NCBI GenBank assembly: GCA_002633005.1
Contig: NMRA01000284.1
Span: 11,266 to 75,265 of the forward strand
DNA from: Phoronis australis
Taxonomy: Eukaryota; Animalia; Phoronida
Direction of reading: 5' to 3'
Length of the DNA: 64,000 nucleotides
Positions 951 through 48,395 of the stretch are shown in pieces. The notes under the pieces are model-generated. The model was not told the DNA's origin, ran no database searches, and worked only from the letters and a program-made list of their open reading frames with translations. Positions within the stretch are counted from its first letter, which is position 1; every line of letters begins with the position of its first letter. Position numbers and translations under genes: made by a program.

Positions 951-1833
951 TAGCTGAGAGAGCTGGTAGACTATGCATGACTTAATTCTTGTCGTTGGGA
1001 GTAGGTTCCTTGTATCGTATAGTTGGTCAACACTTCAGCTTGTCAAAGACATGGCATCCTTCTGGGTCTGGAATGATTTTAAACATTGAGTAAATATTTC
1101 ATTTGTGAAAAATGGGTGAAGGTTGATAATAACCATACTCAAACCAGTGTGTTTGATGTGCAATGTCTGCTACATGTGTCTTACTTGGAAAGGAATGGGT
1201 AATTTTTTTAGAATGTTCTTGTATATTTTGCAGAAATTTGACGAGCTAAGACAAGTNGTGCTAAGTTTCAAAAAAATCGGTGATTTTGGGTATAGACTCT
1301 ACCTGTTGGTTTTTATGTGGAGTCACTCTTAATTAAACTGGCAGTCACTGGCCTTATTTCGGCGAATGTCTGGGAGAGATTCGGGTGAGAACTGACGATC
1401 TGTAATAAAATCAAAAACACAACGGATTGCCGTACTTTATAACTCTACAGTGAAACAAGAACCCCGTTGTAAAACAGATATCCCAGACGGTCGAAAACAG
1501 ACTCCCGCGCCTTCAACTGAAAACAGCTAACCAGCCCTAAAATCTCGAACCCTGCTCCGGTGACAGGAACACCCGGACAATTTTTCAAGGTTCGTGTTCA
1601 GTTTTCGGGCTGTGGTTAGCTATTTTGAAGTCGGCGGTATGTTTTTACACCGGGTTCCTTTTTCGATGGAATACCCTGCTCTCTAGTCAAGGCTAATAAG
1701 CCCAAGAAAATTATCCCAGAACCCCAGAAATGCAGGTTTCTGTCGTAATTTCGATAATGTCTATCTCAGCCCTGTAGTTAGGAGGTACTTGTGAACAATA
1801 AGTGTATTGGCAACCACAATGAACGCGACGACA

Positions 1834-1928
1834 GGGAAAATCCCAGTTCAGTTGGCGTGATGTCATGGGGGACTAAGACCCAGGTTCAGGTATTGAGCGG
1901 TGCTTACAATAGGTAATATTATGACTCA
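1834..1928 (+). promoter_or_regulatory. Cluster of NF-kB/Rel, CRE/ATF-like and AP-1 consensus sites
   Basis: GGGAAAATCCC at 1834-1844, TGATGTCA at 1858-1865, TGACTCA at 1922-1928; candidate splice donors at 1890 (cag|gtattg) and 1913 (tag|gtaata). Confidence 0.4.
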
Positions 1929-3541
1929 TTATTACTTTGGGGCATTCCATTAAATCGCACAATGGCGAGTATCGCAAATTTCGCGTTGCCTGTGACTTTG
2001 GGTTGGTAACGGAAACGGGATCCTTTCACGGTATGGAATATCATACAACTAGTGTCAAGAGAGTCAAAGGCCTTCTCTGGTGTTCATTTCAAGGCAGCTA
2101 AGCAGGACGAAATGTAACTTTAACGTATTTAGAAGTTTTTCATTTTCCGATAGGCAAAACGCTGAAGATGCTAACAGTAGTAAAAAGGTTCTTGTGTCGT
2201 GTTCATGAGTGATTCCACTTGGTGAGCTGATCCTTTGTAAATCAACAACAAATCACACACATCTTCCACAAATCTCAGGCTGAGTAAAGGAACGACTTGA
2301 GACGAGTACATAGCAGCTTAATTTGCATAACGTTTGTTACGTTGATCTGTTTTAGTTGAGCAATCTTCGTGGCAACAAGATCGGATATTGTCGATTTCCA
2401 ACTGCTGTACTCTGCATGGTATTCATTAGCGACACGAAAAGGCTTGTAGCTAGATGACCTTCATATAAACAGGCAGGTAATTATTACTTATTTTTGCATT
2501 TGTTCCAATCAGAAGACCCATTGCAATTATACGCGAACTCCAGTCAAGTATGTGTAAAACACGTTACCCTACAAGTGAAGTAACGGAATAACTTTGTTAT
2601 CAAGGATCGCATTGATACTAAACCAATAAAACTAAATATTTTCAAAGTCCTTGTTTATCCCACCTTCTTGCTGCGTGCAGGAAAGCGTTTCTGAGAAGTT
2701 CGTGATCTCATGATTAATTTTTATCCGAGCGACGAATTTTTCAAAAACACGATTTCTTTTCATCTATATTTTATTACATGTTTAAAGGTTATTTTTAAAA
2801 AACGATCTTTGGTAACGCAGGCGGTTATAAATCCGCTTTCCAACTCAGTAAACAACCTTTGATTTAGACCACTTTTAAACGTGGTAAAATTGATCACAAA
2901 TTGTACCTTAGTCAAATCAGAGTTTATTTCAGCACTGATAGTAGTTCATTGTTGCTGTAAACGAGCCTAGTCTGCAAGTTGGTTTGTCACGGAGTGTCAT
3001 TTTATGCGTCCAGCCTAGTCTCTAAGAAAGATCTCCGTCAGTTCTTTGCAAACATAGAGATCACTTCTCATTGGAGTAATGAACAAGTTGAGGCCAATTT
3101 TATGGCGGTAAGTAGCCTCAAACAAAAAATTTTTATTGGACGGAACGCCGCTTTATAACATGTAGGACCCAAGTAAATTATTCAGTGTTGGCTAATTACA
3201 AAACATCGTGTCTCAAAAACGGCTGTTTGGATTTATGTGAAACTTTTAGATACTACGTTTTTTGCGCTGTTCTCCAAACTTTTAGGAATTGTTTTTAAAA
3301 TGTTTCATCTGTGCATGAGGGGCAATCAAAAAATAGGACTTTTATCAGAGTTAAAAGTCAAAAGTGGCATAAAACGAAAACGAAATGATGATTTAGAAAA
3401 CTATAAGAGGCGTTTTTGAGGTTTTATCTTGAACATTAATAATATTACATGAAGTTTGGTCTTATTTTGTTGTCAATGTACCCTTCTTTTGTGCTACAAA
3501 AATGTAGTCGTGTGAGTCATTCAATGCCAGACTGCTTCCAG

Positions 3542-3802
3542 CAGTGGCGGATTTAGGTGGGAGACAAGGGGGCCATGGCCCCCCTAAAATTCGCAACCGG
3601 GCGGCTCGGAGGGTGATTAAACAATGCTTAGGCCTTGAACAAACCCCCGTTTACTTTTTTTTTAGTCAACAGGTGCGCAAACCCAAAAATTCGAGACCCC
3701 TGCATCCCCAGATTTTAGACTGGGCTCGCGCATCTGCCGAAATTCTGCTTATTCCTGTGCCCTGGCCCCCCCCCCTAACTCAAAATCCTGGATCGGCCCC
3801 TG
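3542..3802 (+). mobile_element. MITE family A copy (CAGTGGCGGAT...GATCCGCCCCTG termini)
   Basis: Terminal inverted repeats cagtggcggattt / cctggatcggcccctg; internal sequence shared with the copy at 58030-58343. Confidence 0.8.
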
Positions 3803-5445: not shown

Positions 5446-5594
5446 GCATACGTGTCCCATCCCACTAAAGAAAAATTGTCTACGCCTATGGGCATTATAA
5501 CAATATTTCATTGGACAGCACGAACTGTAAACCAGTCTGTTTTTTGTTTTGCAGTGCTATCGACGACAGACCCAAAGTATCGTGTGGCGACAAC

Positions 5595-5730
5595 ATGTCG
5601 AGTTCCGATAATTCACCCAGTTTGAATAATCAGGGGTCAACCGTTGTTGTTGCTAACAATGTTCAGATTGGCAACTACAACCAGATCATTCAAAGTCAAC
5701 CTGAAGATCATGTAGCCGATAGTGATCAAA
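5595..5730 (+). CDS. RHIM + C19orf12/Nazo-like membrane protein, coding exon 1 (RHIM motif)
   Basis: Acceptor ttttgttttgcag| at 5554, ATG at 5595 in acaacATG context, donor caaa|gtatgt at 5731 (phase 1). Translates MSSSDNSPSLNNQGSTVVVANNVQIGNYNQIIQSQPEDHVADSDQ; VQIG core at 5661-5672. The start could lie in an upstream exon. Confidence 0.72.
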
Positions 5731-6363
5731 GTATGTTTGTGTTTGATCATGTTTCTGTTCCTCAACTCTACCTGTCTATCCTACTTGCCTGTCTAACCAT
5801 GGGTCGTTACCTATTGGTCTATGCACCTGCCTGCCTGCCTGGTACACATATTTCCAGGAAAAAATCTCTGTCTGTGTATCTGTCTGTATGCCCGCCTGTA
5901 GCACTAGGGTCAGATAATTGGTAAAACACTAGCGAAAACGTAAACGAACAGCCCGCGAAGGGGTGATTTTCTTCAGCAGTATATTTCTTTACCACCCGAA
6001 TCATCGCTTTTTAAAAGAAAATTGATGTCAAAACACGTTCACTCTCTGCAATGAATTGATTAATGTGACGATAAGCAAAGGTCTTGCACCCTGCGTACTG
6101 TACTTGCGTCCTTTAAGCGGTCTGGATACAAAAGACCTGGCGAATACGCTAGCTGTTTTGGGGTAACTCAAGTCGCCAGCATACGTTCAAATGACTAGCG
6201 TTGTTTTTAGCTACTTTTCTCGATAATGTGCACCCATTGTTTGCATCCGCCGCTTCGCAGTTTGTATTCTATCCAGTATCTGTGTTGCGAGTTCGCAACG
6301 TACTTCGAAAAATGTTTTTACGATTGTTTACTATACAAATCACCAGACAGTATCCCTTCACAG

Positions 6364-6483
6364 GTAATGAGATGGAACAAGACCTTTCACAGCTACAAGA
6401 TTATGCCGAAAGGAAAGAGTTGAAAGCAATTGCACCAATCAAAAGAAACAGAGTTTATTTGCTTCTGTTCTTGATCTTAACAG
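6364..6483 (+). CDS. RHIM + C19orf12/Nazo-like membrane protein, coding exon 2
   Basis: Acceptor cccttcacag| at 6363, donor acag|gtacac at 6484; 120 nt, phase 1-1. Translates (S)NEMEQDLSQLQDYAERKELKAIAPIKRNRVYLLLFLILT(G), resembling the C19orf12 N-terminal helix followed by a hydrophobic segment. Confidence 0.68.
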
Positions 6484-7777
6484 GTACACATGGGCTGCTT
6501 TTTAACATTTTTGGTGCAAGATTGGTTGAGCACTTTGATTTATGCAGTGGCATCAAGAGATGTTAATTTTAGCTCACAACAGGTTAGGCACGTTCGCAAA
6601 TTTTACTGTCTGAGAAAAACGCAACAAGCAAAGCTACTCATCCGTTTTACGTTCGTTTAGCCTTCTGACTGGTCTTACTGAAAAGCAGACTTAAATCAAG
6701 TGTGTCTTTTTCATGCGATACTAGACTTGTCTGGATTTTTTCGCATGGATATTTTTTTAATTAAATAGGCCAACTGTGAACTCCTCCTCAGCGCCCAATC
6801 GAAACCAAAGCTGTCGCCTGGTAAAATCACATCGGATTGTGTTGTTTTATAGCTGTGGTCAAGGCTAATAACTTCAGTCTATCCCAATCAAAAGTAATCC
6901 CAAAAAATAATGTGTTTTCAGCTTTTAAACCCGATAAATGTTCCCTTAGCGTTCATAAAATGAGGGCACAGAAACTTGGAGAATGTGCTGCAAAGGTTTT
7001 GTGCAGAACACAATCCAGAAGTCAGAGCATTCAGCCAATAATAAAACCAAGGAGTTTAAGTCAACAAAGGCATTCACTGAAAACAGAAAGCCTGTGAAAT
7101 TTAGTTTTAGGCTTTATATTAAATCGAACGTTAACTGGGTCACATAAGCAAGGCTTTTATTGAAAATAAGGAAAAGTAAAAAGGTCTAATCGTAACAAAA
7201 CAGCAGTATCAACAATTAAGACCAAAGTTCGATTCATGCTCAAGATGAAATCTCCAAATCGCTATTACAATTTTCGAAGTTATCCGATTACGTCATACAA
7301 ATTTTCGGGTTTTTTTCATTATAATCTTGAAAAACCTAAAAAATTAAACACGTTTAAAAACTATTCCTAGCAGCGTTTTGGAGAATAACATGAAACGTAG
7401 TATGCAAAATTGATTAAATACACGACACTTGTCGTAGTTAACCATCTTTACTCCATTCCGTTCGTATCCTCTGTACAAAGTTCGACATTCAACAGAACAT
7501 TGGTGAAGCAAATGACCTGAGACAACATGTCTCTTTTAATCATGATGATTGAAAGACACACGATATTTCGAAACATACTTGTTTCATTCTCATCAAGTGT
7601 CGTGTATTTAACCAAATTTGTATAACGAATATCTGTTACTCAAGTATAGATGGCATAGTATTTGAAAGTTTCAAATGAATCCAACTGTACATTTCTGAGA
7701 TATGATCTTCCGCAGTCAGCCAAACCTCGGACATTTTTATATTCTCTACGTAATTATTGAATTGTCTGTGTTAACAG

Positions 7778-8229
7778 GGACGACAATGGCGCTGAACTTC
7801 GCTTTTACTTCAACGACATCAAACGAAACCAGCACACTTGTCAACTTAATGCGGGGAGTTTACGGTGAGATTCTTAACATGTTGACCCCGCCACCTCAAA
7901 TGCCTAAATTACGGATAGTTCATCCACCTCAGCAAACGGTAGAACGCGTCACGCCTGTATGCGATGGCACAGCAGTCATACTGAGTGCCTTGTCAGCATT
8001 GGTTGTGTCATGGATACCATCACTGGGAAGACGGTATGCTCTGTCTGAGTTGCTGGAACAATTGTCAAACCAGGAGAAGTCGCGCCTTAGAAAGGGGGCA
8101 AAAGAGTTGATGGAAGAAAGAAAACTTGGCGACTTTCAGACGGCTGTAGATGAAAACCGTGATGACGACATATTGGATGTTCTCAAGATTGCTCTTTATG
8201 AAACCAGTGGAATCCAGATCGTGATGTAA
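7778..8229 (+). CDS. RHIM + C19orf12/Nazo-like membrane protein, last coding exon
   Basis: Acceptor gtgttaacag| at 7777 in phase 1; open to TAA at 8227-8229. The three exons sum to 708 nt (235 aa + stop). Contains GTAVILSALSALVVSWIPSLGRRYALSELLEQLSNQEKSRL, resembling the C19orf12 core. Confidence 0.75.
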
Positions 8230-8579
8230 CAACAGGTAGTCGAATTCGACAAGAAATTTCAAAAATACTAGAAAACACTCCTCTGCGTGCCCATAATACA
8301 CTTCAGATCCCAAATAGACCCTTTACTTCAGTCCTAGATGGCCTCGAATGAGAAAATTATTCGCGGTGTAAATTTGTCTTGCGCTCTGTATTTGCTCCTT
8401 CCTCGCTACGCTTCCAGAGGCCACTTCTCATTCTATACTTACATGTGCTGTCCAGAGCTGGTGTCACAAGAGGGTAGATAATACGAGTTGCTGGTATGTA
8501 GATACTGTAGGAAACCTGGGAAGCTGAAGGGAAATTAACTAGGATAAGTGGAAATAGAACGTTGAGCCGTCAGGACAAA

Positions 8580-8839
8580 CCAAGGGTACCGTTCCAAGAA
8601 AACTGACTTAATAGCTAATACAAATCTTAAATTTATGTCAATTTTAACATAAAACTTCAACTCGTCTTAAGTTCGTTCCAGGAAAGTGATCTTAAGTTTG
8701 GCGTATGTTTTTGACCTAAGATTTTGTCTTAAGCTCGACTTACTTACCGGGTGTGGAAGTTTCAAAGTTTGGAAGTTAAGAAAAATTTTAGACTTAAGTA
8801 AATATGAGCTTAAGTCAATTTCCGGGAACGGGCCTCTGG
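8580..8839. mobile_element. MITE with ~30-bp imperfect TIRs and internal CTTAAG subrepeats
   Basis: ccaagggtaccgttccaagaaaactgactta at the left is the imperfect reverse complement of taagtcaatttccgggaacgggcctctgg at the right. Confidence 0.65.
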
Positions 8840-11800
8840 AATCAAGCCAATAGCTGCGAAGACCCATTCGCCTGTCTGCCTACATAATCTTCAAGTGCTA
8901 CCGAATAAGCTGGCAACTTAGGTATCAGGAAATGCGTGCATGTGTCATTTTCGAATTCACGATTCTAGGACTGGCCAACCCCAATAAACCCTGAAGCATT
9001 TCTTGTTGTGTCGCTGATGGTTTCAACGTTCTTGTTGGTAATGGAAATCGAGTATTTTGGAATAGGCCCAACTAGGAGAACGATTTTATTAACATAAGTG
9101 GCTTAATTAATTTCTCGCTTTTATGTGTAAATGTTGAAGAAATTCAGTTTTAATAGTTTGAAAAATATTGTTAAGCTGGTGTAGATAAATATCCAGCTCC
9201 CTCCCCTTGCACCTAAAACCGTCCATATTTATGAACCGCAACCGTCAGTGATATTATCAAGAGTAAGTGATTACACTTACACACAAGCGAATCTCTTTCT
9301 CATGGATGTATATACAGTAGTATACGAATTACAATGCAAATAACTCCTTGGCATTTCATGTTTTATCACTTGCAGTTCTTCACATTTTTTGTTTTATTTC
9401 AGATTTCTTTTTTACTTGTTTGAACTTCATACAGTTATAGTTGCTGAAACGCTGCTATGAAAATATGCGTTCAATTTAATTTTCTTACTACCGACTGCGG
9501 TTAAGTTACATATATGACACCTGGGATGGTTGAAGATGTACATGAAATTTGATGGTAAGAAAAAACGCGATCAGTGGGCTTGGAAAGAAAAGGCAGATTA
9601 GTATTGCTCGAGACCAACCTCGGCCCCTAAATGATCCGCCGTAACAAGCCAGCTTGATCCTATTTTCAAGCTAGTTCAAACGAACTGACAGTTCCAGGGA
9701 TGTGACGAAGATGGCCGAATAGGGCGTCGTCCCCCTCACTGTTTATAGCCAGAGAACTTTCTCCTCACCAAAATTCAAATTCTGAAAATTGTTGTATATA
9801 GTTAAATAAATTTCAGGGTATGCTTTATTTCTACGGAAATAGAGTAGCTTTTTACAGTACTAAAATACGTCATTAACTTGTGATTCTGTTCGCACGGCAA
9901 AGCTGAAAACCAAAGTTCAATAACGCTAATACCTCGCAAAAAGTAAGACCTTGCGAGATTCCGTGAGATATCGACCTGTATTTTCAACTAGAGCGTGTGA
10001 TTTTGGCAGGATTTTCTTGTCGCGAGACAGCCACGGAACTCTAGGCAGGCCTCGGGATATCTGTTGGTAAACCATGACGTTAAGTTCAGTGTGACAGCGA
10101 AATCAAATATTTATCACGCTTGTTTGTTTTCGTACATGGGATAAACATGATATTGTCAACGTTTGATTTCTTATTATTTACGTTACTACTTACACATGTG
10201 GGATTTTCTTTTAAATGTCTATGTTTATGGACGGCGTCAGCACAAAAAATGTGGCGTTAAAGCCATCCCAGCGCCCTGTGGTGCGTCGCCCATGCGTATT
10301 AACGTGCACCGAGTTGTGATTAGTGTAACGTGTCGCCACCTGTCGGTCTTCTTGTAATTGGGTATGACCGTGAGCACTTCCCGCCACTGCCTCTGTTGTA
10401 TATTAGCAGATTTGCAAATCTGTCAATTGGCTTTTAAACGTCCATCCGTGCCAAGTATGTGCCATGTATGTGAAGCACCATCAAGTTTTCACTGGTATTA
10501 GTTAGTTGTGTGGACAGTTGTGGCGGTTAGGGGTGATCGCAGACGAATAGTTGCGAGCTCTGGACTATAGCTCAAATGGGGTTACCGCCACACAGCGAGC
10601 AAAATTCTTACTTCGTCTGATCTATTCATTACGGTAAACATCCGTTGTAAATGTAGTACACGCGATTAAAATGCGCAAGTGAGAAATTTGTTGTTGTATG
10701 GTGATGTAATTATTAACTTTCATTGCTACCAACGGTAATCCGCTGCTGAGTCACGACCGACCTCGCCCGCTTGTCGTGAGGAATTACATGTACGCTAACC
10801 AGGTAAGTGTGTTCCAATAAGTGGAACATTACCTTCACTGCCTCGCCAGGCAAAATCCGTGCGGTTCATTTTGCTGCTGCAGATTGTGTGCTATGATCTG
10901 AGCTCATTTGCGTTCGAGGCACGTAACCCTTGGTCTGCGCTGGCCCTTTCAATGTACTGTGGCGATTATAGGCGGCTTTGCCTTGGTAACTCTGTGTGTT
11001 GTATTTGTGGTACCAATAAAATGTCCCAGTTAAACTCACGGTGTTTCGTTTCATTTGCAACATTACAAATATTTTACGGTGTGGATAGGTTTTTATCCAA
11101 AATAAATAAATGTAGTACTTCCGGATGGTATTGGTTCGTTCTTAATTGTCTTTTGGCTTGTTAGCAGTAATACGTCTACTCATTCCCGGCGGCACATGGT
11201 ATGAAGGCCCGGCCATCATTATCGGCGACAATCGAAACGAACATTTCAACAGTTGTTCAGGGCTTTTTTCATCAAAATACTTCGATTTTCTTACGTGAAC
11301 GTGTGTTTCTTTAGCATAAATCTGTGAGGCCTGTGATGCTCGACTTCCCCGCCTGTTGAGCCAGGTAACATATTTAAAGTTCCCTTTTAAAGCTCACTTT
11401 GCCCGGAATGTGATTTTAAAGTTCAGCCTTCATGTCCAACAGCACAGTAGACCTATTCTGGTAACAACAAAGATTGCACTGGTTACCAGTTATAGATGCC
11501 AAGTTTTCAAAACGTATTTTCAAAATTGTGATTTAGGAATATGAGGTTTTTGCAGTATCATACATGCTGTCGAGTGGCCGCGATCTTTCGGGAAAATTTG
11601 AAACTCGGAGAGGAATACAATCGATAATTAGTCAATTTATCCCCAAATGTTACTCTAGAGAGGTTACTACTCCAGTGTGCTTCGACTCACTATTTTCCTA
11701 TCGTATACACTCAGGAGCTTAGACCATCAGACACTCACGCGAAATCGACGGTTGAAGCCTGGTACTGAAACCGCCTAGGAACTAGTCGTGTGGTCAAATT

Positions 11801-12790: not shown

Positions 12791-13183
12791 ATCAAGTGCA
12801 AACTAGGGCAGGACAGTCATCCAGGTAAACCATGCAAAGCTCGATCACAGAATAATGGACAATTATTTCGAGTTCATATTAGTGGAACGCGAAGTGTCAA
12901 AAAACATTCCGAGTTTGACCTCGAGAGCAAAGATTAGATCTAGGGCTAAGCATAGAGCCTCTAATCTCAATCCAAACTCAGATTCGACATAAACTCAGAC
13001 TCAGGGGCATGATTTGAGTAGAAAATTATAACTTTTTTCGAAGCGTAACATGCATTTTGTAATTTTCTAGTGGAGTTTCGAGTACCAAAATTACTTAAGT
13101 TATCGGGCCCAGAACATGTTTGAGTGGCTTTAAAAATTTCACATTTGAACTGACCACTTTACTACGACCTGAAACGAACTTAC

Positions 13184-13624
13184 CAATACTAAAAGGTATG
13201 AAAGACTCTGGTTTTGACACCTTCCCATCAGCATTAATGAAACGTTCGGGATAAAATGTTTCGGGATCGGGGAAAACGTCCGGGTTCATAAGCACTGCCG
13301 ACATATTTGGTAGAATCACGGTATCCGACGGGATGGGGTGGCCGTTGATCAGAACATCTTTTATTGTCCTGTGGAACAGGCCTAACGGGGTTATGTTACC
13401 CAGGCGGAGCGCCTCGCACAGAAACGCCTCTGTAAAAGGCATTTGTCGCATGTGAGTCATGCTGGGCAATTTGTCTCTCCCAATAACGTCATCGATTTCG
13501 GCTTGAACTCTCTGCTGGTACTCGGGGTGGTGTAAAAGGTACAGTATTGACCACCGCAATGTCGTGGACGTCGTTTCAGTGCCAGCGCCGAAAAAATCGT
13601 TGAATACTTTGGCCATTTGTGTCT
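13184..13624 (-). CDS. Cytochrome P450 (clan 2), coding exon 3
   Basis: Acceptor ttctttgcag|, donor g|gtaagt; contains I-helix AGTETT, K-helix EALR, PERF and FIPFSI; 441 nt, phase 1-1. Confidence 0.96.
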
Positions 13625-13944
13625 CTGCAAAGAAGATCAACATTAAACTAGTGACGTTACTTTTAGAAAGTGCATCTAGTATCTACCTAAAAACACAATG
13701 TTTGACTGCAAGATCGAAATAACGGGGGGGGGTGCTTTGCCAAAGTTTTTGCACTGCCGCACGCAGTTTTCTAACAGAAAGACAAAATAGCCAACGTGGA
13801 CTGTTTGCTCTAAGCTCAAAAGGTGGTGTGACAGGAAGATGTGACTGAAATAGTTTATTCACCATATGCTTTTAGTTCTAGATTTTAGTGCGTGTGAGTG
13901 CATTTGCGTTGGTGGATACGTTGTCATTGCGGTAAATAACTTAC

Positions 13945-14466
13945 GCAGTTCTTCCGACTTGTCAGGGCTTTTCCCATTCTCGTACATTGCATTGATATAG
14001 GCGTCGATAAAAGTTTCAATGTTTTGGGGGTCAAACCTTTTTAGACGCTCCATCACTCGGTCCTTGTTAAAGTTGGTCGATAACACGTCAGTATGATGAA
14101 TATAACTGAGCCAGAATAAATCGCCCGGTATGTGCCGTAAGGCGGGGATGAAGTTGACGATTGCGCCTTTTGCCATAAGCTGGAGACCGGTGTCGTATCT
14201 TTCGATCAAAGTGTGGAATGTTGGGTCGTCATATTCGAACCGCTGGCCGTATATAACAGAGCACGTGACATTGGATATGGCCTTCGCGAGAAAGTAGTGC
14301 ATGTGCACCGGTTTGCCGTCGGTTTTGACAAGTTCTTTGATCAGTATGGAGCACTCTTCTTGAATCTTGTCTTCCATTGTGGCTTTTCCAAAACCAAAGT
14401 CCCGTAAAATGTTTTGAAGAACCTTTCTATGAAGCATCCAAACCTCGCCGTCTGACATAACGATGC
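13945..14466 (-). CDS. Cytochrome P450 (clan 2), coding exon 2
   Basis: Acceptor cgtttcag|, donor c|gtaagt; (G)IVMSDGEVWMLHRK...LRDFGFGK...IQEE...FIDAY; 522 nt, phase 1-1; WxxxR C-helix motif. Confidence 0.95.
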
Positions 14467-14516
14467 CTGAAACGAGCACAATTAGGCGTTAGGTAACGCT
14501 AACATGCTTTCCGATN

Positions 14517-15061
14517 TTCCCATTCTCGTACATTGCATTGATATAGGCGTCGATAAATGTTTCAATGTTTTGAGGGTCAAACCTTTTTAGACGCTCCATC
14601 ACTCGGTCCTTGTTAAATTTGGTCGATAACACGTCAGTATGATGAATATAACTGAGCCAGAATAAATCGCCAGGTATGTGCCGCAAGGCGGGGATGAAGT
14701 TGACGATTGCGCCTTTTGCCATAAGCTGGAGACCGGTGTCGTATCTTTCGATCAAAGTGTGGAATGTTGGGTCGTCATATTCGAACCGCTGGCCGTATAT
14801 AACAGAGCACGTGACATTGGATATGGCCTTCGCGAGAAAGTAATGCATGTGCACCGGTTTGCCGTCGGTTTTGACAAGTTCTTTGATCAGTTTGGAGCAC
14901 TCTTCTTGAATCTTGTCTTCCATTGTGGCTTTTCCAAAACCAAAGTCCCGTAAAATGTTTTGAAGAACCTTTCTATGAAGCATCCAAACCTCGCCGTCTG
15001 ACATAACGATGCCTGAAACGAGCACAATTAGGCGTTAGGTAACGCTAACATGCTTTCCGAT
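14517..15061 (-). other. Near-identical second copy of most of P450 exon 2 plus acceptor, cut at an N gap (probable uncollapsed allele)
   Basis: 14517-15061 repeats 13971-14515 with a few SNPs; the junction is the N at 14516; this copy lacks the donor end. Confidence 0.85.
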
Positions 15062-17043
15062 CAGAAAGCAAATCGGAAATTTAATCTGACCTCCGAAAAA
15101 ATCACAAGTGAACGCCCATATATTATCCGTATCAAATCAGCAAACAGATTTGCCTTCCAATTAGCAGGCAACATTAAAATGACGCAAGCCTAACTTGTGT
15201 TGTGATTAGGCTCTGTTTGTCAGTTGTGATCGCACGTGATTGGCGAGAATATTAACATTTTGGTAATAGCTGACTTTCGTACTAGCCGCGCCATATTGCA
15301 ATTCACTATCCCGCCAGACGGCGAACTGCGTTTTAACACCTCCCCTGCTATTATAATGCTGGCAAATTTCCACTGCTGTGCGGTGGGACGTATTTAAGTT
15401 TTACAAGAGAGGCAAAATTTTTGAAATATCAATACATGAGCAAGGATGACATGTTCCATGGGCCTACATTTCCCACTACTGACGAATAAGAATCCGCTAC
15501 AAAACCAGAGGCTGCGGCTGATAAAGCGGGTGAATTCGATCACAGCCGAGATCAAAAATTCAAAAATCAATTACTGACTTTGAACTAATCAAACAATGGG
15601 AGGGGTTGACAAAATCTATTCCTCTACTTTTAGATTAATGAACCACTACGCAGTAATTGAATTTCAAGTGTCCGCCATGTTTTGGGTCGGAATCGGCAAT
15701 CGAAAGTCAGTTTCGTGTTTTCATTTTACTCTAGAGAACGTCAATACGAAAAGTCACCAGCTGTGGCTAAGCACAATGCAAGAGTAACTTGTCTGCTATA
15801 GAATAAGCATTTGATAACGAAATTGAGGGTTGGACTGCCTTGCGAAGTGATTTGAGCATTTCCGGAAATGCCGGCGATCTGACGGTTAGGCAATCGGGAG
15901 CCTGGTTACCTTTGCCTTACCTGATAGTCTTACAAATATAGCTTTACCTTTAGTTTCTTAGTTTCGACTGATTTTAAAGTTAACATATAAAGTTGTTTAT
16001 CGATGAAAAGCCAATAATCCCATTGCTCGAATAAGTAAGTGAGTTAAAAAGTTTTTCGAATGAACTCGTCATGTGGACACACTTTATGGTCAAATATCCT
16101 TTAAAAAATACGATAACTCGCTATATCTGCTAACCTAGGCAGCTTTTTGTAGAGTTTACTGTTACCAGGGTACTGCACTTTCCGATCACATCATGCCCGA
16201 CGCCGAGCGGAGTGAGCTCTCATGTAAGGCGCTGAAGGCTCGCTGGTCCCCTACGTGCCTAGCCAGCACGCAGGTATCACGCAGTGGCACGCGCTTTAGC
16301 ATTGGTTGATGTAACCTCAACAGTCATTGGTTAGCTTTACAACACCGTGAAAAATGGCGGACTGTAAACGATTTTTAGCCTTGTCAAGCAAGTGGCGCCG
16401 CTGCAACTATTTCGTTTCTGCAATGATGTTTAATAGCCGTGTGCTTGAAGCGCATACATGTACAATTAACACATATCTGACCGATTTATTATTGTGTTAT
16501 CCATACTGTATGAATACAAGACAGTATCGTAAACAAAAGTCATCGACAGTAGAAAGATGCATTCCGAAAAGGCGCAATCACAATTTCTAGGATTCACATT
16601 TCCTGAACATAGAATTTTAAGCACTGATTTGTCTGTACAACAGACCACATTTATACTTCAGTCCATCAGTCAAAATTAAGTGATACCTGCGCGCTGACTA
16701 CTGACCATCTCGCGGCACGTAAGGCACCAGGGAGTACCTGTAGGTCACGTGATTGAACAGCCGCGTGAAGCGGAGGGTTGTTGGTCTCGCACATTTGTGC
16801 GAAACTGTTATTAAAAGAAAACCACACTCACGTAAGAAAACCGAGGTAAATTTCAGTAATGAAATGCCGCTCCGAACAGCTGTTGTCTGAGATCAATTCG
16901 TGTAATCCTGTTCAACTCTGCGCATTTTATTCATGCTTTATTGCAGCACTACTACCGGTATATGGACATGTACAGCTCCAATATTGAAAATAAGATACTA
17001 ATGAATAATGAATTTTAATCGATTTGCTTTCAAACACTAAACG

Positions 17044-17198
17044 CTGTGGCGGATTTAGAGGGGGGAAGGGGTCCATGGCCCCCTTAAAATTCTCCCAGGT
17101 TCCATTTGACAGTTCAGGGGGTGCGAATGTCTGAAAGGCAAAATCCTGACTAATACTGTGCCCTGCCTACCCCACTCAAAATTCTGGATCCGCCCCTG
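17044..17198 (+). mobile_element. MITE family A copy (short form)
   Basis: ctgtggcggattt...ctggatccgcccctg; flanks aaacg / aaaca. Confidence 0.8.
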
Positions 17199-19293
17199 AA
17201 ACAGTGCTGTAGTGAAGAGTAGGCGTACGTAGGCGCAGCCAACCACCTTTAGGCAATTGAACGTAGCGCCTACGCACCGTAAGTTTACGATGGGCTTTGG
17301 GCGCCTACTTACCTCTAATTTAACCACTACAGCACTGCCCTGAAAAGGATATCAAATCCACTTTTAAGCCTATAAGTAAGTATTGACTACTACGACTAGA
17401 ACCACTCAAAGAAAAAAGCCCTGTTCCTGTTGCCAACTGTTGGAGCGAGCTTCGGCCGCAAACTCCTAAAAAAGTCTACTGAATACAGTTGGGTGCGCTG
17501 CGGGATACAGGTTGTTTTTCCTTTCAGTAGTGTCGAGTCCCAAGTATCAAGAGGCACCGGATTCTCCGATGTACGATTCTCGGGCTCGCAAAAAGACCAG
17601 TATGTAAAGTGTATCCGGCATCTCATGAAATTTGATCCCTACAAATTAGCTTATCTTCCGGTAAGAAGTTTCTGGGTCGGTTGCTACTTTACTTAGCTCC
17701 CACCTATTCCCGATGTGCTCGACTCTTTCGGCGGCAGTCACGGTTTCTAGTAATGCGTAACACTACGGACAATAGGGAAAACTACGAAGGAATGTCGTAT
17801 TAGTAAAAAATCATGCTTTGTTCCTGACGAAATCACGAAAGCAAGGTTTAGTATCCTTTTCAAGTTTCAGTGCCTTTTTGGCCGATACCGGGGCGACCAT
17901 GGATTTTGATAGCGGAAAAGGTCGTTTGCAGATCACAGACACTCTTTAGTGCATACTCCGGAGGCACTGATACTGATAAGGACGCGTCTCCAGCTGCCGT
18001 TCCCCCGCTAAACGTCGGTCCCTGGATCAGGAAAGGAACATCACATCCCGGCCCACGCTCCTAAACTTCACCCGGCCCAGGTTAATCCGTCAAACTCCAC
18101 ACCCAGGAACCAATNTTAGTACAGAACGCGATAGAACGTATTGTAGTGCGAATCTGAAGTTCATTTGCCATAACAGCAATGCTTTTGGACATTTTTCGAA
18201 CTAAACGGCTAAAAACTCGAAGACAATAACAGAATACACTCTGCTACCGTATTGGGCAAATGACCAAACGACGAGCTTTTGCCCCACTTCCCGTGACGTC
18301 ACAGTTAAGTCTCACATAATCTCGCGTTATTGTTATAAACTCGCAAAAGGCCTATTAAGGCGCTACCTGAAGGCTCGCTGGTCCCCTACGTGCCTAGCCA
18401 GCACGCAGGTATCACGCAGTGGCACGCGCTTTAGCATTGGTTGATGTAACCTCAACAGTCATTGGTTAGTTTTACAACACCGTGAAAAATAGCGGACTGT
18501 AAACGATATTTAGCCTTGTCAAGCAAGTGGCGCCGCTGCAACTATTTCGTTTCTGCAGTGATGTTTAATAGCCGTGTGCTTGAAGCGCATACATGTACAA
18601 TTAACACATATCTGGTCGATTTATTATTGTGTTATTCATACTGTATGAATACAAAACAGTATCGTTGACAAAAGTCATCGACAGTAGAAAGATGCATTCC
18701 GAAAAGGCGCAATCACAATTTCTAGGATTCACATTTCCTGAACATAGAATTTGAAGCACCGATTTGTCTGTACAACAGACCACATTTACACTTCAGTCCA
18801 TCAGTCATGCCGGCATAGACTATATAGAGTGTCTATGATGCTAGTTTGTTTGCGTAAAGCGCTGCCTGTTGAGAATTCGACTAGCCAATCAGAAACGCCA
18901 ATGTAAAAAAATTTCCCTAGGAAAATTAAGTGATACCTGCGTGCTGGCTACTGGCCATCTCGCGGCACGCAGGGAACCAGGGAGTACCTGTAGGTCACGT
19001 GATTGAACAGCCGCGTGAAGCGGAGGGATGTTGGTCTTGCACATTTGTGCGAAACTATTATTAAAAGAAAACCACACTCACGCAAGAAAACCGAGGTAAA
19101 TTTCAGTAATGAAATGCCGCTCCGAACAGCTGTTGTCTGAGATCAATTCGTGTAATCCTGTTCAACTCTGCGCATTTTATTCATGCTTTATTGCAGCACT
19201 ACTACCGGTATATGGACATGTACAGCTCCAATACTGAAAATAAGATACTAATGAATAATGAATTTTAATCGATTTGCTTTCAAACACTAAACG

Positions 19294-19448
19294 CTGTGGC
19301 GGATTTATAGGGGGGAAGGGGTCCATGGCCCCCTTAAAATTCTCCCAGGTTCCATTTGACAGTTCAGGGGGTGCGAATGTCTCAAAGGCAAAATCCTGAC
19401 TAATACTGTGCCCTGCCCACCCCACTCAAAATTCTGGATCCGCCCCTG
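19294..19448 (+). mobile_element. MITE family A copy (duplicate of 17044-17198)
   Basis: Same termini and flanks, inside the duplicated block. Confidence 0.8.
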
Positions 19449-20632
19449 AAACAGTGCTGTAGTGGAGAGTAGGCGCACGTAGGCGCAGCCAACCACCTTT
19501 AGGCAATTGAACGTAGCGCCTACGCACCGTAAGTTTACGATGGGCTTTGGGCGCCTACTTACCTCTAATTTAACCACTACAGCACTGCCCTGAAAAGGAT
19601 ATCAAACCCACTTTTAAGCCTATAAATAAGTATTGACTACTACGACTAGAACCACTCAAAGAAAAAAGCCCTGTTCCTGTTGCCAACTGTTGGAGCGAGC
19701 TTCGGCCGCAAACTCCTAAAAAAGTCTACTGAATACAGTTGAGTGCGCTGCGGGATACAGGTTGTTTTTCCTTTCAGTAATGTCGAGTCCCAAGTATCAA
19801 GAGGTACCGGATTCTCCGATGTACGATTCTCGGGCTCGCATTGAAAAGACCAGTATGTAAAGTGTATCCGGCATGAAATTTGATCCCTACAAATTACTTA
19901 TCTTCCAGTAAGAAGTTTCTGGGTCGGTTGCTACTTTACTTAGCTCCCACCTATTCCCGAACTTCATCAAAACGATGTGCTCGACTCTTTCGGCGGCAGT
20001 CACGGTTTCTAGTAATGCGTAACACTGCGGACAATTGGGAAAACTACGAAGGAATGTCGTATTAGTAAAAAATCATGCTTTGTTCCTGACGAAATCACGA
20101 AAGCAAGGTTTAGTATCCTTTTCAAGCTTCAGTGCCTTTTTGGCCGATACCTGGGCGACCATGGATTTTGATAGCGGAAAAGGTCGTTTGCAGATCACCG
20201 TCAGACACTCTTTAGTGCATACTCCGGAGGCACTGATACTGATAAGGACGCGTCTCCAGCTGCCGTTCCCCCGCTAAACGTCGGTCCCTGGATCAGGAAA
20301 GGAACATCACATCCCCGCCCACGCTCCTAAACTTCACCCGGCCCAGGTTAATCCGTCAAACTCCACACCCAGGAACCAATTAAGCTCCATTGACTCCTGG
20401 GGATCACACTGAGATTCCTGACTAGGTTGTGGCCGTTGATGGTCACCGGGTGGGCATGCAAGGCTCATGGAATTTGGGACTTGGGCTCTAGAATTTGAGG
20501 CGCTCGCATGGGAAACGGCCCCCCTGATACCAGTTCCTCACGATGACACGTAATCGATAGCTTTTACCCGAGTAAAAAACGCCACAACAATTAATTAACA
20601 ATTAACGCCAGAGAATAAAAACTCGATCTCAC

Positions 20633-20987
20633 CTTGCTTGTTCGAAGTCATTTCGAACATGACGAAGTTTGGTCGACCCGTAAAATTTCCTCCTTGTTTC
20701 GTAAACGCTTCTCTTATAGTGGCGTAGCTGTTCAAAATAACCATTGGTATGGTGCCAAAATAGATTGTGAATATGTCTCCATACCTCTTGCCTAATTCGG
20801 GAAGAGTTTTATCCACACGTCGGCCCACCGTAAGCAAATTTCCGATAACGGGAAGAGGTGTGGGGCCAGGCGGGTATCGCTTGCGTCGTTGCAGAACATC
20901 GAAAATCCAATGAGCGACGGCAAAAGTAAACAAAAAGATCGCAAATCCACCGCAGTAACGTATTATTATAGAGCTTACTGTAAACAT
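20633..20987 (-). CDS. Cytochrome P450 (clan 2), coding exon 1
   Basis: ATG at 20987; signal anchor then RRKRYPPGPTPLPVIGNLL...YGDIFTIYFG...IREAF...GRP; donor g|gtgaga. Four exons total 1497 nt = 498 aa + stop. Confidence 0.95.
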
Positions 20988-21334
20988 TTTCCCTGTGAAG
21001 TGAGGCTCGCTTGATATGACCTTCGACGGACTTTGCTTCGGTCCCGGCAGACGATTGCACAAACTAAGACTGAGTCAAGCCCGTTATCAGACGATCCACG
21101 GACTGATTGGTACTGCACAACGCAATTGTGTTGATTTCTATGCTATCGTTGTTATTTTGATTACCATCCTATATAAACTGTTGTGGATCCATTGGCCGCC
21201 TTAATTGCCAGATCTGGCGAAACTTCTAGCTTTGCGTTTGCAACCAAGAAGGCGGTCAATACTGTAACACACGTACTCCACTCTACCCTGTTTGTTATCA
21301 TACCCAGATCAAACAGGTTACACAAAAGCGTAAT

Positions 21335-21457: not shown

Positions 21458-24400
21458 GTATAGGCCTACTCGCTTTTGACCTCATTATGCAAGCCCACTT
21501 GTACACTTATCTACCCTAAACCGACAGTGTCGCCATTATCGTTCGACATTTTTTAAAAGGCGCTGAAAACGGAGGTGTGCGGTAGGTGGTGAAAGCGTGA
21601 GAAGAACTGAAAACTATGCCGTTCAAAATAGTAGTCGCAGTATGTCGCAGTCTGCTGTCACCCCAACCAGACTAGCTGTACGCGTGGATCAAGCAATCCC
21701 AGTAACCCATGGCGAATGAGATTGCCCGGCGTCAATGTTTGCCGCCGTTCACAGATGCTTTGAACTCTAAAGCCGGAGAGAATGGCTACGAGCAGTAAAC
21801 AGAAAATAATACAATAAAATTAAATGATTCTCTGTAATTGAAGAAAGGCCAGTGGGTCAAATTTAACTTTTGGTTTAAAATGCGGTGTTGGCATTTCTCA
21901 TATTAGCCCTGTGGATGAAACGGAGTGAGCTACAAACCCGGAGTTGACCACAAACTAAATATGTATGAATAATTCCTACACTTACAACAATGCGAGGTGA
22001 TTCAGATTGCTTTTTTAATGTCGATTTACATGTTTTTTATATGAAAATGGCGCTTTAAGTCATGGAGTTGATTTCGCTGTACCGGAGTGGCGACCGGGCC
22101 AGGGTGCGAAACTTTCCCACGCTTATGTATTATTTAAAGAAAAATAAAAAAGTTTTGGGGACCGTTTTATGAAGTTTGTGTTAAAATTGAAAAACGTGTC
22201 ATCATCATGACGTTGCATGCGCGCACCCAGCCTTTAATATGGGGAGGCTCGAATTTCCAAAAATGTGGCCCTTTTACCGACAACTGAAAAAGTCGAACGA
22301 CCAAAAAACGGGATATCACGTCGAGAGATGTGAATTGTGCTTTTGCGCCTGTTTAGTGGACTTTTTGTCTCGTTTTCTCGGACTTTTTGTTTCTCTGAAG
22401 CGGACCATTTTCTCCACTTTGCCAAATGGGCCGGGGGGNGCGCGCATGCGTTGGCTATTAATATTTACTGTAGACATCGCAGAGTAAAAAATAATTATAC
22501 AGTACACGTTATCGCCATCTATTGCAGTTATTCAAGACTGGCAGGAGAGTCGCATGCAGTTTGTTTTTCACACTACTGGTATGACGGTAATTGATATAAC
22601 TAGTAGTGAAGGTACTGGTGTTCATGCTTCAACTCTACGTAATCGCTGGTGCTGAACGGCACTGGTTACAACCCTTAATGTCGCGTGGTCACGTGATCAC
22701 GTATGTGGCGGCCTCTGTATTTTGGCGCGAGTGTAGGTGTTATACCGCGAAAGTAGCTACGGCCGTCAGGGTGCAGACGCTCGGCAGTGTTGGTTAGGGG
22801 GCGAGAGGGTTATGACTGATTTACGTGCTCTACCAGGACTTCAAAGTGTTTTTGTCCGCGAATGATATATTTTTATGGATAGTGCTGGATTAACTGTTAA
22901 GCTATACTAAGCTACACGGCTTAAGGCCCGCGCAAAACAGGGCCTCATCTTGCAGAAACGGGGCCTACAAAAGCGTTGAACTTTTAAGTGGAAATTCACT
23001 AAGTCAAATTAGAAGTAGAGAACAGCACTGTCTCTCCAATTCATTGCCTGGTGTAAATGATAAATCCACTGCGAAACCAAGGACAATAAAAAGCAACCTA
23101 ATGACGGGGATGCTCATCTATAATTGAAGAGTTTTCCGTCGTAAGATCGAGGAAATAGAACTTCGCTAAAACATGTGAACGAATAGATTACTGTGTCACG
23201 CTGAACGCACATAAGCCAATTTTGTGCATTTGGATAAATGCTCACTAGATTATAAGGAGAGATTTTCCGGTACTGGGGAAAACATTGATTATTCCAACTT
23301 TCAAATTGTTTAGTTTACGCCATTTGGTATTCAAGTTACAAGAACAAAATTATGTAGGTCTACATCATTTACCTAAGAGTAGTCGATGGGGTCCCCAGTC
23401 TTCTGGTGGGTTAGAGCCCCACGAACCTCTTCGACGCTTACTCATTGGAGAATTCATTTAAGTAAGGCCCACGATTGGTCGAGGTCTGATACCTACAGCC
23501 TTTTTAAGGTTATGTAGTTCCAGAATGGCATGGTAGGGCTTTCCTGTAGTATCTTATTGGCTATTTAGCCAAATATTTTCAAAACTGTTGATTTTTTATC
23601 TCACCAAAAGTATATATTTTCTAAAAGTGGAAAGCCTGTAGAATTTGTGACGTTTTACCAACCTGTCTTTAGTTAGGACAAGTGACCGCGTCTTTTTCGT
23701 AAACTTTAGTAAAAAGACGGTACATTGCTATCAAATAACAGTATCAATAACATGATTAAATAAATGCTCAAAATGTGGTCTCAAAAACACCGTTACAGTT
23801 ACTTGTTCGTTTTCGTGTGATGCAACTTCACAGTTTTTTTTTCATGCAAATCATAAAAGTCGTATTTTTGATAAACCCTCATGCGAAAGTGCAATATTGT
23901 AAAAACGACTCCTAATATAGTTTTGGAGAATAATGCATACATGTGTAGAGCATACTGTCTGAAAGTTAGATATACCTTTGTATGAGTACGATTAGCCATT
24001 TTTGAGACATGATTTTCCTAACTTAGCCAAATTTGGACATTTTTCTAGGGTCTCTACGGTCTCTACATAACATTAAACTCACGATTCTTCTATCATTCCT
24101 TTAAGCAGTTTTATTGCGTAAGCCTTTAGCATATGATATGAAGTAAAGAATCTTTATAGCAAATTATTGGGTAAAGCCAAAACTCGGAAATGATATTATT
24201 GTGAACACTCAGGACATTGTGAAACGCATGCGCAGTCCTCTCTGTTAGGGGGTAGAAACGATTCCGTTATCACACCTCTAAACTTTCAGCTTCGATCCTT
24301 GACGATCCCTGAATCCCAGTGCCGTACCAGCAAACTAACTTTAAAATGTATTGCTTTTTTGTTATTTAATTTTAATCAAGTAATTACCAGTGTTGAATAT

Positions 24401-33965: not shown

Positions 33966-34204
33966 CTCCTGTCTCTATGTGTAAAAACCTCATGCAAAAG
34001 CCACTGATCAGGATGAGAGCACATGCTTGAGATTTGCTGGTGCTTTACGTTATCCACACGTGTGATTATTTAAGAGAATAAAAACCGGATTTATTATCCT
34101 GTAAAATTTGATAGGAGACTGCAAATACGCACACGGCTACTTTAATGGTCTATTTTGATTGAGGTGCTCTACACAGCTGAAAACAAATGAGAGCATGTGT
34201 TTAA

Positions 34205-35611
34205 GGTTACCTTAAACCTTTTTAGTGACCTCCATTCTAACTCGTATGTCAAAAGGAAAGGTTTTGTCAACTAGAAAAAAGATTAGGGAATATAAAATAT
34301 GTTTTATATTTATGTGTCATAATTATTATTATTACGTAAACACCTTTTTAAGTTAAAATTCCATGTTTAAGAAAGGTTCATTCATAGCAAAATAACCCTT
34401 CTGTCCACTTTAATGAAACATTTTTTACAAGAAAACTTCACCAGTTACCTCAAAAATGCTGTTAGGAATTTTCGATTAGTCTTTTCTTTTGATTTTTATG
34501 ACAAATCAACTCACAAAACGTATTGTATTTTTGTAAAAAATATAAGTCGTATTCGTCTTTGTAATATTACGCAAAAACTAGGTGTTTATATCGAAAACCC
34601 TAACAGTGTTTTTGAGATTGACGAATAAATATCAAGTATGGAAGTTTCAGGTAAATCCACCAAGCCGTTTTCAAGAACTTGTGTTCCTAAGTTTAAATTA
34701 AATCGATTTTTTAAAACCGAGAAAAAACGATTATGTAGTGAGACGTGAAAATCTCAAGGATTTCGGTTAATTATTCTGTGAAAACTTGATTTTGGTCAAT
34801 ATAACCTATACGCCTCTTAGCCACGTTCATTATTTCAACATTCACTTGGATTGTCTTGTGAATTTGCAGGGCGTAATTAACTTAATTATCACAGAAACTT
34901 TAATTTAAACCAAGTCAATCTCCAATGCGTAGTTCCCAACTAGGTTACGGGCGGAGCCAGCATATTAAGTGGGTCCACCTTAAAGTAGGTCAACAGTCCA
35001 TTTTAGACACACCACGCGCTGGGAGACTGATATGAAAACTAAGTACGAAGTGGATACAGAAATTGGGTTGGTGGTTAAAACACGTCGTGAGCATGATATC
35101 GAAACAGCAAAATGTCAAATTACCTGATTCAATGAATTTGGGTGAGGATTTATCTCTTTTCACAATTTGCTGTGTTCGTGAACACTCAAAGAGGCGTGAG
35201 GCGACACGTAGCATTCGTTCTCAACGGTCGTATGCATGCAAACACCCAACTCTCTCAGGAGTTATGTTCTGTCTTTGTTTTCCCCGGCATCTTTCTATCA
35301 TATGTATACCTCTTCTACGCAATATTATGGCGACTCGGTGAATGAGTGGACTGAGGGTATTTAAGAAGCTGCTCTGTGTCTGGCGGGAGATTCGATTTGA
35401 GTGACAGCCCCGTAACCTTTGACCTCGGATAAGTAAACACATTTCCACGGGGTTGCGTGGTTCCAAGGTACGTCTGCCACATCTTTTTTTCTCGTTACAC
35501 GGTATATATATTGTATTTGAAGTTCCCCGAGAATGAAGAAAAGGTATTTTGCTAGACATGTGTGAAATATTGTAAAATGGTCAATTTTTGTGACTAAGGT
35601 TTGAGATATCC
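34205..35611 (+). mobile_element. Non-autonomous TTAA DNA transposon, family B (Kolobok-like), full length ~1.4 kb
   Basis: ttaa|ggttaccttaaacc ... ggtttgagatatcc|ttaa (imperfect TIR, TTAA on both sides, RR..YY ends); colinear inverted copy at 46330-47719. Confidence 0.78.
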
Positions 35612-46283: not shown

Positions 46284-46329
46284 GATGCAATGAATATGTA
46301 ATAAAGCGAGAAAACCAATTAATTGCTGA

Positions 46330-47719: not shown

Positions 47720-48395
47720 TTGACATCACAGTACTGAAACTCAAACCTCTACCAAAACTGTACTTTGTATGCCCTAATGTTCCTGTTTGGTGACCTCTCT
47801 GCCCGATATTTCTTTATGAGGAGAATTCGTTGTGGTTACCATCTCTTTGATTTGGAGCTGAACTATGTTAAGTTGTTGTTGCTTGGCAGCGGCTACCCTA
47901 GTACTCCTATTAACTTTTTGTTTTCGATTTAATTTTTGAGAGACGACACTTGCTTCCTGCCCGCATGCAGGGTCCTGTACAGGAAAAGGTCTACATTTAT
48001 TTGGTTCTTCACATGTATTCCTAAACTGACAGTTACTGGCAATTATTGCTCTTTCCGTTAAATTGGTCTCCATATATAGACCATCTATGAGACTTTCTCG
48101 TTTGTTAAGTTTTCAACATAAATTAAAAGGTGTTCAGAGCATGCAGTGTACCATGTCAGTTGTGAAAATTTGGGGATTTTTTTATATTGACAATAACTGT
48201 ATTCGGTTGTTAGTCCTCGAGGCACTCTTTATTTAAGCAAAATCATGTAGAGAGATAACTAAACAGGAACTTTGGGGCATACATGCTAGAGCTATGGTAG
48301 AGGTTGGAGTTTCACTAGGGTATTAAGCACTGTGATGTTTCGTAGTCGATTCTTTTTCTCGCTTGCGTACATATTTATTGCATTTGTGTACTGAC

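Follow-up and report, generated by a model that had tools for sequence, protein, structure and literature searches.

The 64,000-nucleotide stretch of Phoronis australis DNA analysed here (the window) contains a small gene whose first coding exon encodes a short motif resembling the RHIM of mouse RIPK3, placed at the N terminus of a predicted membrane protein. A second form of the same gene lacks the motif and remains in frame.

Translation of 5640-5687 on the plus strand yields 16 residues, comprising three valines, two asparagines, a VQIG tetrad and the sequence NYNQI, as the first-pass annotation had read them. The RHIM tetrad is defined as (V/I)-Q-(V/I/L/C)-G (PMC13506858 and PMC12119088, in the accessible parts of both papers), a pattern to which VQIG conforms, and it is followed in RHIMs by a conserved Asn-x-apolar tail (PMC4262963). 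When the motif is aligned with mouse RIPK3, the tetrad and the next three residues are identical at all seven positions, with the asparagine at position 454 and an isoleucine at position 456, which agrees with the RIPK3-like G-x-x-N-x-hydrophobic tail noticed earlier. The other ten positions of the 17-residue template (residues 441-457) show no identity (0/10), and the positions of F442, L456 and V457 are occupied by V, I and I. RHIMs also have a hydrophobic strand about six residues ahead of the tetrad, and the V at the F442 position fits this. F442, Q449 and L456 of the mouse protein are required for necroptosis, according to the available text of PMC7955032. The 17-residue core contains neither a charged residue nor a proline, and it is flanked by hydrophilic stretches rich in N, Q, S, D and E; this fits the RHIM criterion of 18-22 residues with unstructured flanks, as far as disorder can be deduced from composition. 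N, Q and S together make up 47% of the 45 residues of the exon, compared with 16% in the rest of the protein. Thus, the earlier description of an N/Q/S-rich exon ending in a phase-1 donor holds, with the GT at 5731 following 136 coding bases.

The ungapped score of the motif against the mouse RIPK3 template, which was picked after the motif had been seen, is 37; when the exon peptide was shuffled 20,000 times, 2 shuffles scored as high. It is also the top score among the 50,382 stop-free 17-mers of the window, the runner-up scoring 31. The looser pattern [IV]Q[IVL]G..N, proposed in the first-pass annotation, matches twice in the six frames of the window versus 0.22 matches expected from 60 simulated windows, and by itself is weak evidence. 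Its second match (about 21480-21504, minus strand) comes three residues after a stop codon and has no hydrophobic residue at the upstream position; it was read as a chance match.

Profile and database searches with this exon gave no family assignment. A Pfam scan of 45-, 32- and 22-residue cuts of the exon, with filters that drop weak matches, returned no match to the RHIM model, which we take to be PF12721. The sole Pfam match of the first coding exon was a hexapeptide repeat below the cutoff (E 0.03). Sequence searches of the PDB returned lectin and LpxA chains at E 2.6-5 with no RIPK fibril chain among them, and an Atlas search with the first-exon motif produced no usable match. A hexapeptide-repeat identity (Pfam E 0.03, LpxA E 2.6) was dropped, as the sequence occurs in a single copy and the match is below the cutoff. 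RHIM profiles are known to be short on statistical power (PMC4262963). Judged by its residues, the motif is quite probably a true RHIM-type motif.

The gene that carries it has a non-coding first exon and three coding exons (Table 1), which when joined give an open frame of 235 residues. The surrounding sequence has about 40% G+C and contains introns. The first coding exon follows an AG acceptor ending at 5554, its ATG has an A at position -3, and 136 coding bases precede the donor at 5731, so that the intron is in phase 1. An in-frame stop in the spliced leader precedes ATG 5595, which is thus the first in-frame start. Two short upstream open reading frames of 13 and 4 codons (2416-2457 and 2454-2468, plus strand) lie in the non-coding first exon, where they might reduce translation of the main frame.

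Six of the eight listed sequencing runs were compared with the window (X1, X4, X5, X6, X7 and X8). X1 is a DNA run, and X6 is an RNA run from a study other than the possible source of the window; X1 and X4 belong to one study and may come from one animal, X1 may itself be the source of the window, and the RNA samples may be pools. X4 holds spliced joints and has zero depth in parts of the introns, and was consequently treated as RNA, its DNA label being a guess; its spliced form may also be a retrocopy. The GT..AG joint 5730>6364 is found in two raw reads of X6 and in one contig of X4, which shows 0 differences from the window over 5552-5730. The upstream joint from 2476 is seen as loose ends in five X6 reads and six X7 reads, and the joint 6483>7778 in six reads of X5, two of X6 and twelve of X7. 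The reads map to a single strand, which is what a stranded library would give for a plus-strand transcript. X6 has no depth at 5635-5671, and the tetrad itself is therefore covered by the X4 contig and the DNA run X1 only, while X5 has window-type letters in the second coding exon and zero depth over the first. The motif of the window is thus spliced into mRNA, as the joint 5730>6364 is found in both X6 and X4, and ATG 5595, the first in-frame ATG, is the predicted start of translation. The further claim that the RHIM has an exon of its own is right in that the whole motif lies within one exon, which is not a pure module, as it also contains 40 bases of 5' UTR.

Table 1. Features of the motif-bearing gene and its upstream region, in positions of the window.
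Feature	Position	Strand	Basis and remarks
kB-like site	1835..1844	-	consensus match; about 500 bases upstream of the estimated start
Second, weaker kB-like site	1939..1948	+	consensus match
IRF/ISRE-like core	2138..2147	-	consensus match; 1 of 8 in the window, 6.49 expected
5' non-coding exon	2340..2476	+	start approximate; read depth and joint; two short upstream ORFs and an in-frame stop
First coding exon	5555..5730	+	40 bases of 5' UTR, ATG 5595, 45 codons plus one base, phase-1 donor 5731
220-bp segment absent from the second form	5600..5819	+	joints in X1, X4, X7 and X8; 3-base microhomology at the ends
RHIM-type motif (probable)	5640..5690	+	tetrad 5661-5672; 5661-5681 corresponds to mouse RIPK3 448-454
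Short coding piece of the second form	5820..5843	+	intronic in the window form; cryptic phase-1 donor GT 5842-5843
Second coding exon	6364..6483	+	phase 1-1; own ATG 6372; predicted membrane segment 1 starts at about 6456
Last coding exon	7778..8229	+	end of segment 1 (about 7806), proline-rich loop, predicted membrane segment 2 (about 7954-8022), four-helix C-terminal part, stop 8227-8229
Probable long 3' UTR	8230..11034	+	AATAAA at 11015; same-strand depth; X8 contigs end at 11034; continuity inferred from separate pieces

The same runs contain a second form of the gene, in which a 220-bp segment that includes the whole motif and the splice donor 5731 is absent. The DNA run X1, which covers all 30 bins including the introns, has two contigs at the locus: the first matches the window exactly (depth 14.5), and in the second 5599 is joined to the equivalent of 5820 (depth 11.1). 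The deletion joint occurs in four of the six runs (X1, X4, X7, X8) and linked markers occur in the other two (X5, X6); the window form of the exon is present in three of the six (X1, X4, X6). In the RNA run X7, all seven listed exon markers show second-form letters only (13/13, 14/14, 13/13, 16/16, 18/18, 14/14 and 15/15) and the depth over 5635-5819 is nil; X6 shows both forms. The loss of the 220 bases was not attributed to alternative splicing, since the skipped stretch lacks GT..AG ends and a genomic-type X1 contig contains the joined form.

The second form uses a cryptic donor that is intronic in the window form, and its splice to the second coding exon (window 5842 to 6364) is supported by seven X7 reads and one X8 contig. 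Its exon has 19 coding bases, which leaves it in phase 1 with the frame kept. A 4-base repeat is present in two units in the second form versus four in the window form; with the repeat number of the window the second form would fall out of frame. The predicted product has 197 residues, compared with 235 for the window form. Exon skipping offers another route to a motif-less product: an X8 contig joins 2476 directly to 6364 (depth 12.5 versus 22.8 for inclusion of the first coding exon), and the first in-frame ATG of this transcript, at 6372, would give about 187 residues. The motif is dispensable in at least some animals. The cryptic donor (5842-5849) and the donor of the second coding exon (6484-6491) share their first eight bases, which may be due to chance or to an old duplication.

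The two forms are probably alleles of one locus. They have the same flanking exons and introns, and three observations favour alleles: the diverged block lies within a shared locus, the dosage in X1 is equal, and one run contains a single form. The competing possibility, that they are recent paralogues at two loci expressed differently between samples, is rather improbable. It draws on the divergence between the forms in X1 (35 of 761 bases, 4.6%), which exceeds that between the duplicated segments flanking assembly gaps in the window (47 of 2462 bases, 1.9%; p about 0.0001), which are themselves likely two haplotypes. The equal dosage would fit two loci as well, and both forms or their markers occur together in four of the six runs. 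Against two loci speak the single form found in X7 at all marker sites, the lack of a second gene copy in the 64-kb window, and the X8 transcript: its coding part is of second-form type, and 83 of its 1455 bases within the gene (5.7%) are unlike the window, compared with only 8 of 1416 bases (99.4% identity) in the distal 3' UTR (9619-11034). In the second coding exon, four of the five substitutions between the forms are nonsynonymous, with pN at 4.3%, pS at 4.2% and an intron rate of 4.7%, and a 3-base insertion keeps the frame. With such small numbers, this pattern fits relaxed selection as well as diversifying selection.

As to which form came first, the motif-less form is likely the product of a deletion. 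The first-pass annotation had assumed that the RHIM was added as one shuffled exon and that near-identical exons would be found on other immune genes of this genome. No second copy of 5635-5819 at 83% identity or more was found in X1 (503 million letters) or in X4, each of which has a single contig; loose ends from this interval are likewise missing from the sampled X6 and X7 reads, and the 64-kb window has no second motif exon. These counts apply to contigs that can have holes and to about a fifth of the RNA runs. Exon-shuffled modules have introns of the same phase on both sides, as in a symmetric 1-1 exon; here the 5' intron lies in the UTR and only the 3' border is in phase 1. The idea of a shuffled exon thus finds no support at 83% identity or more, below which the traces of an older event may lie, and where the species varies, loss of the motif by deletion is the better reading. 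It is improbable that the motif-less form is ancestral and that the 220 bases were inserted from another immune gene. Such an insertion would account for a segment that carries the motif together with its own strong phase-1 donor, the 3-base repeat at the ends could be a target-site duplication, and the frame is kept in the motif-less form, an outcome expected of about one random deletion in three. An insertion younger than the 5% split should have left a source copy, and the lack of one at 83% identity or more in the contigs of X1 and X4 and the reads of X6 and X7 favours deletion. Moreover, the intronic part of the segment is pyrimidine-rich, with a 4-base periodicity of 0.38 (in the top 5% of the window) that reaches 0.59 past the right breakpoint; this continuous low-complexity tract points to a deletion from a motif-bearing ancestor. 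The 3-base microhomology was counted toward deletion, and neither a terminal inverted repeat nor a poly(A) is visible by eye at the ends. On a longer time scale, the studied C19orf12 proteins are short (141-152 residues in humans, in the available text of PMC12384588), which suggests that this lineage acquired the motif at some point.

The protein that carries the motif is predicted to span a membrane twice. Hydropathy shows two hydrophobic segments (residues about 77-95 and about 145-167) separated by a loop of about 50 residues that contains an N-glycosylation sequon. Basic residues precede segment 1 and follow segment 2, and this places both termini, and hence the motif, presumably in the cytosol. 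The gene had been called C19orf12-like. In favour of this, the Atlas places the last exon near the C19orf12 cluster with a score of 0.89, a recognition below threshold in which all ten family-bearing matches agree, and the hairpin with a helical C terminus is seen as well, its segments about 50 residues apart and thus wider than in human C19orf12. However, a Pfam scan of single-exon pieces gave no match to PF20721, and the glycine zipper described for the transmembrane region of C19orf12 (PMC12384588, accessible part) is missing: each hydrophobic segment has one glycine (positions 86 and 149) without the zipper spacing. For these two reasons the protein is described as C19orf12-like and is not filed as a member of the family.

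Structure and homology searches provided little else. The single-sequence model of the last exon is poor (pLDDT 43), and a model of the C-terminal 73 residues has four helices at a mean pLDDT of 65. The fold search with this model was uninformative, with a best Z of 4.2 among 48,161 chains, and none of the 21 viral fold matches reached E 0.001 or less. PYD death-fold rows at Z about 3 were read as noise and count neither for nor against a death fold; no catalytic or death-fold domain was detected. None of the 59 candidate homologues found with the last coding exon was significant, nor was either of the two longer proteins compared with the first coding exon. A phmmer search of 1.84 billion representatives gave six matches (E 1e-7 to 3e-4) that were dropped as repeat-driven, four of them carrying bacterial Ig/PKD repeats and two having no family. 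In a metagenome scan without the first exon, none of 372 pattern matches was confirmed. These searches yielded no orthologue.

Upstream of the transcription start, which was estimated near 2340 from read depth, consensus matches for immune-type regulators were found in a targeted look. One match to the IRF/ISRE core consensus lies at 2138-2147, and it and the two kB-like sites are within about 500 bases of the start. The window contains four kB-like matches versus 3.34 expected, and two of the four lie upstream of the gene; the chance of at least two kB sites in 600 bases is about 0.0005, for a span chosen after the look. In flies, Nazo acts in an NF-kB-mediated antiviral response (PMC10883546, which cites Goto et al.) and is induced by cGAMP (PMC10917227), as stated in the accessible parts of these papers. 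RIPK1-like proteins with a RHIM occur in some spiralians and in lancelets (PMC12119088, available text), which makes signalling partners plausible.

These observations can be combined into a tentative reading, to which somewhat less than an even chance is given: the window form would be an immune-inducible RHIM protein tethered to a membrane, with an optional amyloid plug, and the second form, likely a deletion allele, would be uncoupled from RHIM signalling. NF-kB- and IRF-type factors would induce the gene, as reported for fly Nazo. The two hydrophobic segments with their basic flanks would hold both ends and the motif in the cytosol, where the uncharged 17-residue core could stack as a cross-beta fibril, alone or with RHIM proteins such as RIPK1-like kinases. 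Stacking would then cluster the C19orf12-like membrane part on an internal membrane or anchor a signalling fibril there. Deletion of the 220 bp, or exon skipping, would leave the membrane part without the plug, in frame, as a protein of 197 or about 187 residues, respectively. The two forms are likely natural on/off versions of this predicted immune-signalling link.

Two other accounts of the motif have to be weighed against this reading. A true RHIM could also serve as an induced decoy that soaks up RHIM partners at the membrane and damps the pathway, by analogy with fly Pirk; Pirk/Rudra has a RHIM-like motif and inhibits the IMD pathway (PMC4262963). The upstream kB-like sites would fit such feedback, as would the lack of a detected catalytic or death-fold domain, and nothing speaks directly against it. 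However, the motif has all residues required for productive RIPK3 fibrils, and an antiviral effector role is reported for the closest relative that has been studied. A decoy is considered a minor possibility. Slightly more weight, still amounting to an unlikely explanation, is given to the view that the N/Q/S-rich leader resembles a RHIM by chance or as a decayed remnant; the gene would then be a fast-drifting C19orf12-like copy and the deletion an ordinary neutral structural variant. The missing family-level match to a RHIM in Pfam, PDB and Atlas, the chance matches that a loose pattern yields and the equality of pN and pS in the second coding exon are all compatible with this. The motif-less form is also common, its joint being present in four of the six runs, and hemizygous deletions are widespread in some invertebrates, being common in molluscs (10.1101/2020.09.15.298695, accessible part). 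Arguing against a chance likeness are seven identities in a row to a RHIM core of known structure, with hydrophobic residues at the expected flanking positions, the two in 20,000 shuffles, the in-frame location of the motif downstream of the first ATG in a spliced exon, and the frame kept in both forms, 3-base insertion included.

The motif-bearing protein can be compared with several known systems. With the RHIM of mouse RIPK3 (residues 441-460, in the available text of PMC7955032) and the RIPK1/ZBP1/TRIF family it shares the tetrad and the next three residues, the hydrophobic residues at F442, L456 and V457, and an uncharged core in a low-complexity region. In contrast to these proteins, the motif is located at the N terminus of a small predicted two-pass membrane protein in which no kinase, TIR, Z-alpha or death domain was detected. 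Its first strand is a run of valines, its amyloid formation is a prediction, and it is missing from the second gene form. RHIM-type motifs on varied invertebrate immune proteins are already known. In Branchiostoma and in Drosophila PGRP-LC/LE, Imd and Pirk, the RHIM is a plug-in on varied immune proteins, some of which have a transmembrane region, and PGRP-LC has a cytosolic motif on a membrane protein (PMC4262963). The phoronid motif differs from the cryptic insect form by its canonical tetrad, and its partner domain is C19orf12-like. C19orf12 and Drosophila Nazo and CG3740 (PF20721) share with it the small size and a hydrophobic hairpin followed by a helical C-terminal part; the Atlas proximity and the upstream kB-like sites are further points of likeness. 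The phoronid protein differs in its wider loop (about 50 residues between the hydrophobic segments), in the 45 N-terminal residues added with the motif, and in the lack of a glycine zipper and of a PF20721 match on exon pieces.

In fungi, RHIM-like motifs are attached directly to effectors that attack membranes, and balancing selection acts on het loci (PMC5485727 and PMC12881547, accessible parts). HELLP, with its PP/RHIM-like motif, and HET-S/HET-s resemble the locus described here in that a motif is joined to a membrane-associated domain and polymorphic forms differ in their ability to act, as far as the same parts of these two papers describe. In these fungal proteins, however, the motif follows a soluble HeLo-type pore former on its C-terminal side, and the NLR partner is encoded by the adjacent gene. 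The phoronid motif stands at the N terminus of a predicted integral membrane protein in which no HeLo/4HB fold was found, and the neighbouring genes encode a tyrosine phosphatase and a P450. The gene was not placed in the HeLo/HELL class, since the motif is N-terminal and the window contains neither a second motif copy nor a neighbouring NLR. It is nevertheless conceivable, if doubtful, that an antiviral-effector-type, C19orf12/Nazo-like animal membrane protein has been wired into RHIM amyloid signalling and that this wiring is kept as a long-lived balanced polymorphism, in which alleles with and without the plug, diverged by about 5%, segregate within a single species; this would parallel the logic of fungal amyloid effectors and het loci in an animal. 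The searched literature, which lay outside most subscription papers and outside Figure 1 and the supplement of PMC4262963, describes neither the pairing of a RHIM with a C19orf12-like protein nor the in-frame loss of the motif; the single paper in which both terms occur is an MRI review, and the exact seven-residue string occurs in none of the papers searched.

A working motif would provide a first mechanistic handle on the C19orf12/Nazo family, namely activation by clustering, in a family with an unexplained antiviral role in flies and a role in human disease. The natural motif-less form would be a built-in control, allowing versions of one gene with and without the plug to be studied side by side in wild animals. 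An inert motif, by contrast, would make this an ordinary variable invertebrate gene.

Several other features were observed in the window. Upstream of the gene, 123-244 and 1234-1256 (plus strand) are exons of a protein-tyrosine phosphatase (Pfam Y_phosphatase, E 6e-5) joined over a GT..AG intron in four of four runs; the assembly has an N at 1257, and the remainder of the 1523-base transcript lies outside the window. The 75 bases at 1258-1332 have 152-181 X7 reads on the opposite strand that are loose at both ends, and are probably a repeat shared with another transcript. A dispersed repeat of about 200 bases (3599-3802 and 58145-58343, 83% identity) draws reads from other transcripts on both strands. 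A stop-free frame of 136 codons at 63504-63914 (minus strand) has no Pfam match. The pair at 34203-35612 and 46329-47721, inverted, about 1.4 kb long and 71% identical, probably represents two old copies of a mobile element. Downstream of the gene, 13095-21074 (minus strand) contains a cytochrome P450 gene (Pfam p450, E 8e-53) with duplicated segments around the N gaps at 14516 and 18115 (13971-14515/14517-15061, 98.7%; 16225-18114/18356-20380, 96%). Two haplotypes were likely assembled in tandem at this site, and one P450 exon consequently appears twice.
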